The notes beneath the pieces are model-generated. The model saw only the letters and a list, made by a program, of their open reading frames with translations, was not told the DNA's origin and searched no databases. The position numbers were made by a program, and so were the translations under genes. A stretch of 64,000 nt of DNA from Escherichia coli (GTDB taxonomy: Bacteria > Pseudomonadota > Gammaproteobacteria > Enterobacterales > Enterobacteriaceae). Where the stretch lies: NCBI RefSeq assembly GCF_041248615.1, contig NZ_CP158426.1; one strand, given 5' to 3'. Of the stretch, positions 34,245-38,170 are shown piece after piece. Each line of letters starts with the position of its first letter. Position 1 is the first letter of the stretch.

Positions 34245-35399
34245 TTACTTCAGACCGGCAGCATCGCGCAGCAGCTGCGCTTTGTCGGTTTTTTCCCACG
34301 GGAAATGTTCGCGACCAAAGTGACCGTATGCTGCGGTTTCTTTGTAGATCGGGTGCAGCAGATCCAGCATCTGAATCAGACCGTATGGACGCAGGTCAAA
34401 GAACTCACGTACCAGCAGAGTCAGTTGTTCAGAAGGCACTTTCTCGGTACCGAAAGTTTCCACCATGATAGAGGTCGGTTCAGCCACGCCGATTGCGTAG
34501 GAAACCTGAATTTCACAACGATCGGCCAGGCCAGCAGCAACGATGTTTTTCGCGACATAACGTGCTGCGTACGCTGCGGAACGGTCCACTTTTGATGGAT
34601 CTTTACCAGAGAATGCACCACCACCGTGACGTGCCATGCCGCCGTAGGTATCAACGATAATTTTACGACCAGTCAGACCGCAGTCACCCATCGGGCCACC
34701 GATAACAAAACGACCGGTCGGGTTGATGAAGAATTTGGTGGCAGAAGTCAGCCATTCAGCCGGCAGAATCGGCTTGATGATCTCTTCCATTACCGCTTCT
34801 TGCAGCGATTTCTGGTCGATTTCTTCAGAGTGCTGAGTGGAAAGCACGACAGCATCGATACCAACGATTTTGCCGTCGTCATACTGGAAAGTCACCTGGC
34901 TTTTCGCGTCCGGGCGCAGCCACGGCAGAGTGCCGTTTTTACGCACTTCAGCCTGACGCTGTACCAGACGGTGTGCATAGGTGATAGGCGCTGGCATCAG
35001 CACGTCGGTTTCATTGGTTGCGTAGCCAAACATCAGACCCTGGTCACCCGCGCCCTGTTCCAGCGGATCGGCACGGTCAACGCCCTGGTTGATGTCAGGA
35101 GACTGTTTGCCGATAGCGCTCAGAACCGCACAGGAGTTAGCGTCAAAGCCCATGTCGGAATGTACATAGCCAATTTCGCGAACGGTGTTACGGGTGATCT
35201 CTTCGATGTCTACCCAGGCGCTGGTGGTGATTTCGCCGCCAACTAAAACCATGCCGGTTTTTACGTAGGTTTCGCAAGCAACGCGTGCTTTCGGATCCTG
35301 TTCGAGGATCGCGTCTAAAACGGCATCAGAGATTTGGTCAGCAATTTTGTCAGGATGCCCTTCAGAGACGGACTCGGACGTAAAAAGGTGTTTTGCCAT
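34245..35399 (-). CDS. metK: S-adenosylmethionine synthetase
   Basis: Start at [18 protein letters not shown] (384 aa). Confidence 0.95.
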
Positions 35400-35702
35400 A
35401 TTTAATATCACCTAAAGAGAATTTGGTTAGCTCAAACTGTTGTGTGGATTTTCTGTGGTAGCGGATCCTACCACGACTCTGCAGGTTAAAAACACTGGCA
35501 GTCTGAGTGTTAATCGGTATGGATGGATTAACATCTGGATGGCTATTTTAGGTCAGTTCTTCACCCAATTTCCACTTTTTTTTGAATCGTGTCTCATTCT
35601 GTTAAAAACGTGGCTGGAAATTTTTCCTGACAATGCTGGCATTCTGCGTATTTATCTTTTGCAATTTTCTGCCATTGTGGGGTATAAAACGCGGCGCGCG
35701 GC

Positions 35703-35918
35703 TTAAATAAAAAGCACACGACGTTTCTTTCGTGTTGCCACTTCCAGCCGGGTTGAAATCAGAGTTTTGGCTTGTGGGTTCGTCTTAACAGGCGGCCGTG
35801 GAGGTGATACGAAATAATGAACCGTTGTCTGCTGCTTAACCTGTCTCACCGTTCTGGTGAAGATTCGTTCCCCGCACTCTGCATCTCTGCTTTGCATACC
35901 TGCCGATGTTATACCCAT
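35703..35918 (-). CDS. yqgC: small ORF matching K-12 yqgC in position and length (71 aa); doubtful gene
   Basis: 71-aa ORF in the metK-speA divergent region; coding status uncertain. Confidence 0.3.
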
Positions 35919-36053
35919 CTCGGCGCTTCTCAGGATTCAAGAGCTGGTTACAGTTACTGAGGACTGAACAAGGGCGCTCTTGTAAAAACAAGAGTTTTCT
36001 CGTGGTTTCGCCGAACTGTCACACTTACGTTCGGTTATGTGCTTAATAATGTT

Positions 36054-36185
36054 ATGAAAAAGAAACCGGTTGCGCAGTTGGAGCGTCAGCATTCACTGCT
36101 GGAAAATCCATGTGCTTATGGGTTGTTATCGCAGTTCCAGGCTGCGATAGTCGTTAACTGTTTTACACTTAATAAAATAATTTGA
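36054..36185 (+). CDS. yqgB: small protein YqgB (43 aa)
   Basis: [43 protein letters not shown] immediately upstream of speA, as in K-12. Confidence 0.6.
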
Positions 36186-36193
36186 GGTTCGCT

Positions 36194-38170
36194 ATGTCTG
36201 ACGACATGTCTATGGGTTTGCCTTCGTCAGCGGGCGAACACGGTGTACTACGCTCCATGCAGGAGGTTGCAATGAGCTCCCAGGAAGCCAGCAAGATGCT
36301 GCGTACTTACAATATTGCCTGGTGGGGCAATAACTACTATGACGTTAACGAGCTGGGCCACATTAGCGTGTGCCCGGACCCGGACGTCCCGGAAGCTCGC
36401 GTCGATCTCGCGCAGTTAGTGAAAACTCGTGAAGCACAGGGCCAGCGTCTGCCTGCACTGTTCTGTTTCCCACAGATCCTGCAGCACCGTTTGCGTTCCA
36501 TTAACGCCGCGTTCAAACGAGCGCGGGAATCCTACGGCTATAACGGCGATTACTTCCTCGTTTATCCGATCAAAGTTAACCAGCACCGCCGCGTGATTGA
36601 GTCCCTGATTCATTCGGGCGAACCGCTGGGCCTGGAGGCCGGTTCCAAAGCGGAGTTGATGGCGGTGCTGGCACATGCTGGCATGACCCGTAGCGTCATC
36701 GTCTGCAACGGTTATAAGGACCGCGAATATATCCGCCTGGCATTAATTGGCGAGAAGATGGGCCACAAGGTCTATCTGGTCATTGAGAAGATGTCAGAAA
36801 TTGCCATTGTGCTGGATGAAGCAGAACGTCTGAATGTCGTTCCTCGTCTGGGCGTGCGTGCACGTCTGGCTTCGCAGGGCTCGGGTAAATGGCAGTCCTC
36901 TGGCGGGGAAAAATCGAAGTTCGGCCTGGCGGCGACTCAGGTACTGCAACTGGTTGAAACGCTGCGTGAAGCCGGGCGTCTCGACAGCCTGCAACTGCTG
37001 CACTTCCACCTCGGTTCGCAGATGGCGAATATTCGCGATATCGCGACAGGCGTTCGTGAATCCGCGCGTTTCTATGTTGAGCTGCACAAGCTGGGCGTCA
37101 ATATTCAGTGCTTCGACGTCGGCGGCGGTCTGGGCGTGGACTATGAAGGCACCCGTTCGCAGTCCGACTGTTCGGTGAACTACGGCCTCAATGAATACGC
37201 CAACAACATCATCTGGGCGATTGGTGATGCGTGTGAAGAAAATGGTCTGCCGCATCCGACGGTAATCACCGAATCGGGTCGTGCGGTGACTGCGCATCAC
37301 ACCGTGCTGGTGTCGAATATCATCGGCGTGGAACGTAACGAATACACGGTGCCGACCGCGCCTGCAGAAGACGCACCGCGCGCCCTGCAAAGCATGTGGG
37401 AAACCTGGCAGGAGATGCACGAACCGGGAACTCGCCGTTCTCTGCGTGAATGGTTACACGACAGCCAGATGGATCTGCACGATATTCATATCGGCTACTC
37501 TTCCGGCACCTTTAGCCTGCAAGAACGCGCATGGGCTGAGCAGCTTTATTTGAGCATGTGCCATGAAGTGCAAAAGCAGCTGGATCCGCAAAACCGTGCT
37601 CATCGTCCGATTATCGACGAGCTGCAGGAACGTATGGCGGACAAAATGTACGTCAACTTCTCGCTGTTCCAGTCGATGCCGGATGCGTGGGGGATCGACC
37701 AGTTGTTCCCGGTTCTGCCGCTGGAAGGGCTGGATCAAGTGCCGGAACGCCGCGCTGTGCTGCTGGATATTACCTGTGACTCTGACGGTGCTATTGATCA
37801 CTATATTGATGGTGATGGTATTGCCACGACAATGCCAATGCCGGAGTACGATCCAGAGAATCCGCCGATGCTCGGTTTCTTCATGGTCGGCGCATATCAG
37901 GAGATCCTCGGCAACATGCACAACCTGTTCGGTGATACCGAAGCGGTTGACGTGTTCGTCTTCCCTGACGGCAGCGTAGAAGTAGAACTGTCTGACGAAG
38001 GCGATACCGTGGCGGATATGCTGCAATATGTACAGCTCGATCCGAAAACGTTGTTAACCCAGTTCCGTGATCAAGTGAAGAAAACCGATCTTGATGCTGA
38101 ACTGCAACAACAGTTCCTTGAAGAGTTCGAGGCAGGTTTGTACGGTTATACCTATCTTGAAGATGAATAA
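36194..38170 (+). CDS. speA: biosynthetic arginine decarboxylase
   Basis: Start at [17 protein letters not shown] (658 aa). Confidence 0.95.

Follow-up and report, generated by a model that had tools for sequence, protein, structure and literature searches.

The metK-speA interval of Escherichia coli: small open reading frames and leader RNA structure

Organization of the metK-speA interval

The divergent genes metK and speA of Escherichia coli are separated by 794 nt (positions 35400-36193 of the window, i.e., the whole 64-kb stretch of contig NZ_CP158426.1 that was analysed), with the metK start at 35399 on the minus strand and the speA ATG at 36194-36196 on the plus strand. The main route to putrescine in E. 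coli starts with speA, whose repression by polyamines and by cyclic AMP (cAMP) has been known for decades; to our knowledge, no molecular mechanism has been established for this repression. RefSeq annotations map four small open reading frames (ORFs) into the interval, namely yqgD, yqgG, yqgC and yqgB. We found that the 794 nt are not four small genes but the metK promoter/operator together with a speA leader RNA of ~500 bases, forming two back-to-back regulatory regions, one facing metK and one facing speA. The ORFs, their translation and Rho-dependent attenuation have already been published; new here are the identification of yqgC and yqgD as artefacts, of yqgB as a positional upstream ORF (uORF) with a doubtful protein name and of yqgG as a candidate nascent regulator, as well as the covarying structure of the leader. 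The four annotated ORFs are the following:

35455-35706, plus strand: yqgD, 83 amino acids (aa), GTG start
35817-35960, plus strand: yqgG, 47 aa, antisense to yqgC
35703-35918, minus strand: yqgC, 71 aa, annotated in K-12 only and absent from current annotations of the Prokaryotic Genome Annotation Pipeline (PGAP)
36054-36185, plus strand: yqgB, 43 aa, with its TGA at 36183-85

Nine ORFs of at least 41 aa are listed in the ~800 nt between the two genes. As frames of such size are expected here by chance, real and spurious ORFs can be told apart only by conservation and published expression data. YqgB matches the Pfam family PF11036 (E=4e-33; 113.3 bits, cut-off 24) and the NCBIfam family NF033844 small_YqgB (90.1 bits, cut-off 35), YqgG matches PF23505 YqgG (129.9 bits, cut-off 27) and YqgC matches PF17430 YqgC-like (E=2e-39; 133.9 bits), while no Pfam or NCBIfam match was obtained for yqgD. 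A first-pass annotation, made from the window sequence alone, had correctly placed the 43-aa yqgB ORF, which ends a few bases before the speA start (the gap is 8 nt), and a 71-aa yqgC-like ORF on the opposite strand. It had taken yqgB as the only credible gene and suspected that the other frames may be artefacts over promoter/leader DNA. This suspicion is borne out for yqgC and yqgD but not for yqgG, which had been overlooked, as had yqgD, and it is in yqgG instead of yqgB that conservation at the peptide level is found. As a label, promoter/leader DNA is apt, but not in the sense of an inert spacer, since the leader forms an intricate RNA structure that covaries and contains uORFs that are translated.

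Comparative loci were collected by a scan with the first 250 residues of SpeA, which yielded 80 loci from different species of Enterobacteriaceae and Erwiniaceae. metK was the divergent neighbour in 77 of them, and these 77 loci constitute our orthologous set, with a spacer of 633-959 nt (mostly ~800). Leader length and ORF spacing are almost constant across 57 genera/species. Codon changes were counted as substitutions mapped on a tree, and the resulting codon-position statistics separate three kinds of small ORF, namely the real peptide, the positional uORF and the artefact. K-12 coordinates equal 3122105 minus the window coordinate.

The speA-facing region is made up of a promoter and a long leader:

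35659..35696, plus strand: speA promoter, with -35 TTGCAA (35659-64) and -10 TATAAA (35683-88), hexamers read from the sequence, a GC-rich discriminator and the transcription start site (TSS) at 35696
35696..36193, plus strand: speA 5' leader, 498 nt, carrying yqgG and yqgB and highly structured

The forward primer of the speA construct described as the 'entire 5' UTR' (untranslated region) by Adams et al. 2021 (PMC7815308) begins GCGCGGCTTAAATAAAAAGC, which places the speA TSS at 35696, seven bases past the TATAAA -10 element. With this TSS, yqgG and yqgB both lie within the 498-nt speA leader, and 'yqgG-yqgB-speAB transcript' is the wording of Adams et al. themselves (PMC7815308). At the promoter, the sequence GGTATAAAACGC(C/G)GCGCGCGGCT is kept across genera. 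The discriminator between the -10 element and the TSS (35689-35699, CGCGGCGCGC) is GC-rich and likewise conserved across genera. GC-rich discriminators are typical of promoters sensitive to guanosine tetraphosphate (ppGpp) and DksA.

The upstream reading frames yqgG and yqgB

yqgG begins 121 nt past the speA TSS, behind a strong and essentially invariant Shine-Dalgarno (SD) sequence, GGAGGTGAT (35800-08). Its ATG is present at the homologous position in 69 of 74 loci, and the remaining five, which are of the Buttiauxella type, have a TTG one codon upstream at ideal SD spacing. At least 80% of the frame is open in 68 of the 74 loci, with lengths of 35-57 codons. Weaver et al. reported a Ribo-seq start peak for yqgG and detected the chromosomally encoded protein with a sequential peptide affinity (SPA) tag, and YqgG combines a PF23505 match above the cut-off with a conserved and translated ORF.

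Conservation of YqgG is confined to its last ~15 residues, and the N-terminal ~30 residues are nearly free to vary at fixed length, with a ratio of nonsynonymous to synonymous change (pN/pS) of 0.80 for residues 1-28. The C-terminal motif G36-A-S-Q-D-S-R-A-G44 (GASQDSRAG) is encoded at 35922-35948. Within codons 36-44, 57 changes fell on the third position, 17 on the first and only 4 on the second, with six of the first-position changes being synonymous AGR/CGR exchanges, and 61 of 72 codon changes were synonymous. The motif gave a pN/pS of 0.09 (pS 0.41), compared with 0.03 (pS 0.51-0.53) for speA and metK. Judged by these codon statistics, the motif is under selection at the amino-acid level. 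Erwinia, Pantoea and Mixta share the same yqgG SD, followed by a 44-46-codon ORF ending in ...D[TS]xAG-stop. M1 and D40 do not vary in either family, and N2, R30, G36, A43 and G44 are conserved to at least 90% over both. This pattern makes YqgG a strong candidate for a regulatory nascent peptide.

The codons for CRCYTH, which precede the motif, are frozen even at their third positions (pS 0.07) and form a hairpin, H1 (35902-08/35916-24), which places this constraint at the RNA level. For the same reasons, and because it is not kept in Erwiniaceae, we rejected the H-x-C-x-C-x2-H pattern of YqgG as a zinc knuckle. The R30 codon (35904-35906) is the rare CGA in 57 of 57 sequences, and the R42 codon (35940-35942) is AGG in 22, AGA in 18, CGG in 14 and CGA in 3, never CGT or CGC. 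These rare Arg codons could reflect either selection for slow decoding before A43-G44 or a requirement for purines at the RNA level. In database searches the YqgG family was found in Enterobacteriaceae and Erwiniaceae only, always unnamed or as 'protein YqgG'; an exhaustive profile search for distant YqgG relatives gave, beyond those two families, only one unrelated repeat protein, and PDB sequence searches with YqgG and YqgB gave no meaningful match.

yqgB has an ATG and an open frame in 59 of 59 Enterobacteriaceae. It contains no stops, whereas the alternative frames of these columns hold 2.4-3.6 in each sequence, and ~470 codon changes occurred in it without yielding a single stop. Its start codon was detected by INRI-seq. 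The first-pass annotation had named a lack of codon-level conservation across Enterobacteriaceae as what would refute its reading of yqgB, and for the peptide such a lack is seen (pN/pS 1.00), changes being spread over the codon positions as 212/225/191 with no excess at the third. Selection is seen on the open frame, the ATG and the end position but not on the amino acids. In the variable half of the ORF pN/pS was 1.22, and the conserved blocks, with a pS of 0.13, coincide with the arms of RNA helices:

36064-70/36118-24, plus strand: helix of yqgB codons 3-5 with 22-24
36074-77/36112-15, plus strand: helix of yqgB codons 7-8 with 20-21, three pairs with compensatory changes, including Q7 CAG>CGG together with GCT>GCC
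36127-32/36144-49, plus strand: helix of yqgB codons 25-27 with 31-32 (UAUCGC/GCGAUA)

yqgB has no SD. In all 59 loci its stop takes one of two positions, ending 8 nt short of the speA ATG or sharing bases with that ATG as the TGA within ATGTCTGA; in E. coli the TGA at 36183-85 is of the former kind and overlaps the speA SD (TGAGG). This position holds despite in-frame insertions of 12, 17 or ~47 codons (range 12-48). In Erwiniaceae there is an open frame of 37-115 codons that encodes an unrelated peptide and ends at the speA-overlapping TGA. From these patterns, yqgB is a conserved open frame acting as a positional uORF, its peptide not being detectably constrained, and the selected amino-acid sequence expected of a protein ('acid stress response protein') was not found despite the family match.

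Two Enterobacter species (loci L027 and L039) carry a ~141-nt insertion in yqgB that preserves the frame, with 90-91 codons running uninterrupted to the TGA that overlaps speA. The insertion stays open despite the divergence between both species, and a further locus (L040) keeps a 12-codon remnant. Some deposited proteins of 115-121 aa (P0051, P0053) are frameshift fusions of yqgG into the yqgB frame and probably reflect mutations of single strains or errors of gene calling. Such fusions can arise since, in the Klebsiella oxytoca group, the reading frame leading up to yqgB has no stop over ~120 codons. The sequence TTTTACAATGAT just 5' of the yqgB ATG was considered as a promoter and rejected, as it has the wrong TSS spacing and no -35 element.

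The frame statistics bear on the possibility that none of the small ORFs matters, the interval being non-coding promoter and leader DNA in which transcription factor sites and RNA structure are conserved and frames are open by chance. Such an explanation is true for yqgC and yqgD, is in keeping with nine chance ORFs of at least 41 aa in an AT-rich 800 nt, and draws on the RNA helices that account for much of the yqgB conservation. Applied to the interval as a whole, however, it is very improbable: yqgG and yqgB are open in 57 distinct sequences where each sequence has 0.7-3.6 stops in the alternative frames of those columns, the many codon changes in yqgB gave no stop, the loss of the yqgG start in Buttiauxella is offset by the adjacent TTG at ideal SD spacing, third-position changes in the yqgG motif outnumber second-position changes 57:4, and translation has been shown experimentally.

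Alternatively, yqgB and yqgG may encode free-standing small proteins acting in trans, with YqgB as the 'acid stress response protein / virulence promoting factor' and the position near speA reflecting co-transcription only. The curated family matches (PF11036 113 bits, NF033844 90 bits, PF23505 130 bits) and the detection of tagged YqgG speak for this possibility, and amino-acid selection on the YqgG motif would be expected of a trans-acting peptide as well. In addition, yqgB deletion mutants show phenotypes in acid, with colistin and in virulence, and binding of ranitidine by the purified protein has been reported. The deletion in Salmonella, however, lowered speA/speB mRNA, enzyme and spermidine and was rescued by polyamines, and the main text of that study reports no complementation (PMC13159126), while overproduction of YqgB induced an aggregation heat-shock response. 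A pN/pS of 1.00 overall and 1.22 in the variable half, the coincidence of conserved residues with helix arms of depressed synonymous rate, and the retention in Erwiniaceae of the frame and not the peptide, with insertions of 12-48 codons tolerated, all argue against a YqgB protein acting in trans. For YqgG, conservation of only the last ~15 residues behind an N terminus that is free at fixed length is the typical pattern of a nascent-chain regulator. We consider action in trans unlikely, and the phenotype of the 'acid stress protein' YqgB is probably a cis (polar) effect on speA. The 2026 study (PMC13159126) ascribed the deletion phenotypes to the protein and docked and screened drugs against a 'conserved pocket' of the 43-aa YqgB; both the functional name and this screen probably describe the polar effect on speA.

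Leader RNA structure and a model for speA control

The leader folds better than shuffled sequences, with a minimum free energy (MFE) z-score of -3.36 for positions 35696-36260. In addition to H1 and the helices within yqgB, the following elements were assigned:

35714..35738, plus strand: P1 hairpin at the 5' end of the leader, compensatory changes in 9 of 10 pairs
35739..35806, plus strand: SD-sequestering domain, enclosing P2 and the P3 hairpin (35777-35797)
35976-35995, plus strand: H3 hairpin in the yqgG-yqgB spacer, followed by UUUUCUCGUGGUUU, compensatory changes in 4 of 7 pairs
36010-36035, plus strand: H4 hairpin in the yqgG-yqgB spacer, compensatory changes in 2 of 4 pairs
36187..36239, plus strand: speA-start hairpin, GUUCGCUAUGUCUGAC (36187-36202) paired with speA codons 11-16, GUCAGCGGGCGAAC (36226-36239)

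In the SD-sequestering domain, the anti-SD CACUUCCA (35739-46) pairs with UGGAGGUG (35799-806) of the yqgG SD in an 8-bp helix, in which 97.4% of cells are paired in the RNAalifold consensus, and P3 shows compensatory changes in 5 of 7 pairs. The 5' domain (35714-35806) gave a covariation score of 0.306 versus 0.157 and exceeded 500 of 500 shuffles on every covariation measure, while slid controls gave 0.04-0.09. An anti-SD heptamer is found 59-112 nt upstream of the SD in 54 of 77 loci, compared with a 7.7% chance anywhere in the region. In H3 and H4 together, 36 cells show changes in both partners, whereas 9.5 would be expected (0/500 shuffles), and H3 has a folding energy of -13 kcal/mol (z -3.5). 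The speA-start hairpin has 14 bp and -21.2 kcal/mol in E. coli, with 98.5% of cells paired; all 45 one-sided changes in it are wobble-compatible, and there are no double changes. Covariation in the speA leader supports P1, P3, H3, H4 and the yqgB-internal helices.

P1 is preceded by a conserved A-run (AAAAAGC), within 35710-35738. On the minus strand, the hairpin together with GCUUUUUAUU has the score of an intrinsic terminator directed towards the metK promoter and may serve as an insulator against antisense transcription through the speA leader. In the Klebsiella oxytoca group (loci L013, L015 and L018) the P2 loop is longer by ~45 nt.

Readthrough of the speA leader was shown to be Rho-dependent by reporter and northern analysis, and yqgB-speA was listed among 'uncharacterized potential uORFs' (PMC7815308). 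The same study maps a 3' end that is Rho-dependent (Rho score 3.09) and flagged 'uORF' to window 36251, 57 nt into speA and 12 nt beyond the speA-start hairpin, a Rho termination region at K-12 3086055 (window 36050, p=8.7e-20), just 3' of H4, and a Term-seq 3' end at K-12 3086295 (window 35810) (PMC7815308). The last of these lies 4 nt past the anti-SD:SD helix, between the yqgG SD and ATG, and a stable ~115-nt 5' leader fragment (35696-35810) may accumulate. The leader contains only one stretch in which C exceeds G, as in a Rho utilization (rut) site, and this stretch lies inside yqgG (C/G up to 2.1); the median C/G of the orthologs is 1.42 there versus 0.82 elsewhere in the leader.

We propose, with a probability of about 0.6, that speA is preceded by a structured leader in which uORF translation counteracts Rho, yqgB couples ribosomes into the hairpin-buried speA start, and YqgG is a candidate nascent regulator. 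The conservation patterns, covariation and geometry behind this model were observed here, and the TSS, the translation of yqgG and yqgB and the Rho dependence come from the literature; from these we infer the rut location, the coupling, the sensing by the nascent peptide and its ligand. According to the model, the anti-SD of the 5' domain would pair with the yqgG SD and thereby gate yqgG translation. Ribosomes on yqgG would cover the rut-like stretch and, as this is the sole C-rich/G-poor part of the leader, keep Rho off. The C-terminal YqgG peptide (R30..G36..D40..A43-G44) probably acts inside the ribosome, pausing or arresting it upon a polyamine-pathway metabolite. Translation of yqgB would carry ribosomes through the structured distal leader to a stop abutting the speA start, where ribosomes ending yqgB would melt the hairpin over the speA SD/AUG (translational coupling), and it would also close the untranslated gap in which Rho terminates. 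With the uORFs untranslated, Rho would terminate around yqgB and early speA. A stop 8 nt before or overlapping the speA ATG in all 59 loci and the hairpin-occluded SD/AUG are features that fit a coupled uORF, and the model would explain why deletion of yqgB lowers speA/speB mRNA, enzyme and spermidine and why polyamines rescue. Taken together, one uORF under peptide-level constraint, another proposed to couple whatever its peptide, the domain that sequesters the SD and the documented termination by Rho make a concrete and testable model for speA.

speA has a second in-frame start, Met27 (ATG 36272), behind the strong SD AGGAGG (36261-66), and this start gives a cytoplasmic isoform according to the INRI-seq paper. 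As the hairpin that buries AUG1 sits between both speA starts, translation of yqgB that opens it could determine how much long relative to short SpeA is made.

Several points weigh against this model. The anti-SD:SD helix and the speA-start hairpin are almost invariant and so offer no compensatory changes, the 3' arm of the latter is speA coding sequence that is conserved anyway, and the structures were derived from the same sequences that were used to assess them. Initiation at yqgB was undetectable in vivo by Ribo-RET, which may mean that coupling is weak in cells grown in rich medium. The conserved blocks of YqgB have a pN/pS of 0.54, and its codons A6, V32 and V33 vary only synonymously, which would leave room for a weak peptide-level constraint. 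Tagged YqgG accumulates, which makes a function in trans possible. In addition, duplex energies in 43 species revealed no conserved antiterminator alternative to H3, and no Term-seq 3' end has been reported at H3.

These last two results also bear on whether the leader is a classical trp-type attenuator, in which H3 and its U-tract form an intrinsic terminator set by the position of the ribosome on yqgG, or a riboswitch, in which the 5' domain binds a ligand. H3 covaries, is followed by a U-rich tract and lies 16 nt past the yqgG stop; in E. coli, its 5' arm can form a perfect duplex with yqgG codons 41-43 (CAAGAGC), and the 5' domain is a conserved multi-helix structure closed by the SD-sequestering helix. 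Across the 43 species, however, duplexes between the yqgG 3' end and the 5' arm of H3 do not surpass those of shuffled sequences (mean z -0.1, none below -1.64), and the trp-type antiterminator was rejected despite its perfect match in E. coli. H3 as an efficient intrinsic terminator was likewise set aside, as termination here is Rho-dependent and no Term-seq end has been reported at it. YqgG has no run of regulatory codons, and a scan of positions 34900-36700 against Rfam 15 (E<=10) gave no family match, only a chance small nucleolar RNA (snoRNA) hit (E=3.1, 16.6 bits versus a gathering score of 40). Both versions of this explanation appear improbable.

By analogy, the closest relatives of the speA leader as we propose it are speFL-speF, mdtU-mdtJI and tnaC, which all combine a leader peptide with Rho, the first two at polyamine genes. 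YqgG shares with the arrest leader peptides TnaC, SpeFL and MdtU a short translated leader ORF with a conserved C terminus and a free N terminus. SpeFL was reportedly described by Herrero del Valle et al. in 2020 as an ornithine-sensing arrest peptide upstream of the inducible ornithine decarboxylase gene speF. Like the speA leader, speFL-speF (orf34 in Salmonella, PMC6386406) has a short translated ORF with a conserved C-terminal peptide in the long structured leader of an enterobacterial polyamine decarboxylase, with Rho-dependent premature termination. It differs in that SpeFL has no sequence similarity to YqgG and arrests upon sensing ornithine, whereas stalling by YqgG is only a candidate property; the YqgG motif is followed by 0-7 variable codons and not always by a stop, and the speA leader contains, besides yqgG, the uORF yqgB, whose peptide is free to vary, as well as a 5' domain that sequesters the yqgG SD. 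The spermidine-responsive mdtU-mdtJI likewise has a translated uORF with a Rho-dependent 3' end less than 200 nt downstream in a polyamine-related operon, but mdtU was probed with start-codon mutants and spermidine and the speA leader for Rho dependence only (PMC7815308), and the latter has two uORFs, of which the flagged one (yqgB) lacks peptide conservation. tnaC-tnaAB, in which a leader peptide that senses tryptophan blocks Rho, resembles yqgG in the spaced conserved residues near the C terminus of a ~25-50-aa leader peptide, the rut-type region at or after the ORF and the Rho terminator. TnaC, however, arrests on its stop codon, with Pro in the P site, and the tnaC rut site overlaps that stop. 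The C-rich region of yqgG is instead internal to the ORF, and the YqgG motif lies at a variable distance from the stop.

The S-Q-x-S-R-A-G of Enterobacteriaceae YqgG recalls the SQAQGIRAG of SecM (motif ...GIRAG-P), but no Pro follows RAG in the 57 Enterobacteriaceae ORFs, the next position being Y/N/Q/T/K/R/H/M/I/F/L or a stop. In Erwiniaceae AG is followed directly by the stop and the Arg is not conserved, and the context is not secretion-related; a SecM-type RAGP arrest is ruled out, leaving a loose resemblance. yqgB, in turn, is similar to coupled leader ORFs with overlapping stop-start pairs in that its stop lies 8 nt before or overlaps the speA ATG, that start being in a stable conserved hairpin, and in that its peptide is free, but speA also has the internal SD-driven start Met27, which needs no coupling.

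These analogies invite a more tentative proposal, in which YqgG would join SpeFL and MdtU as a third metabolite-sensing nascent peptide in the polyamine network of enterobacteria. D40..A43-G44 would pause or arrest the ribosome for putrescine, spermidine, agmatine or arginine and, together with the SD-sequestering domain, set Rho termination before speA. YqgB would be only a coupling uORF that may set the ratio of long to short SpeA, and an effect in cis would underlie both the name 'acid stress response protein YqgB' and the recent choice of YqgB as a drug target. We regard this fuller proposal as possible, though somewhat doubtful.

The metK-facing region, yqgD and yqgC

The metK-facing region is centred on the following feature:

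35513..35550, minus strand: metK promoter -10 TAAAAT (35550-35545) and met-box-like array (35544-35513)

The -10 element was given by a promoter scan. On the metK strand the array directly follows it and consists of four degenerate met-box-like units, AGCCATCC AGATGTTA ATCCATCC ATACCGAT. Eighteen of its 32 positions agree with four copies of the consensus AGACGTCT, and only two positions in the window score that high; a strict met-box search (two consensus boxes, up to 3 mismatches) gave no match, and the scored four-box scan was needed to find it. The stretch 35500-35555 is the best conserved of the intergenic region (identity 0.88-0.98). Met boxes upstream of metK have been described in 119 of 122 Enterobacteriales (PMC3228920), and positions 35513-35544 are presumably the exact site of the MetJ operator of metK. 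The metK side is made up of a sigma-70 promoter, a MetJ operator and a ~140-nt 5' UTR.

yqgD lies wholly upstream of the speA TSS, over the metK 5' UTR, promoter and met boxes. Its start codon is present at the homologous position in 15 of 71 loci and its full length in 4 of 71, with a median open length of 18 codons. The conserved core of 'YqgD', SLSVNQYRWINIWTAILG, corresponds to the promoter/operator stretch 35500-35555 only, and the frame is often broken immediately after it. yqgD is an annotation artefact, a chance reading of metK regulatory DNA on the opposite strand.

The full length of yqgC is kept in 11 of 76 loci, with a median open length of 26 codons. Its ATG is kept in 55 of the 76 because it is the complement of a conserved yqgG codon. 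Weaver et al. found neither ribosome density nor a tagged protein for yqgC. It is an artefact as well, an antisense reading of conserved yqgG/leader sequence, and despite its PF17430 match no conserved coding ORF is found. yqgC and yqgD should not be treated as genes, and the annotation should be corrected in this respect.

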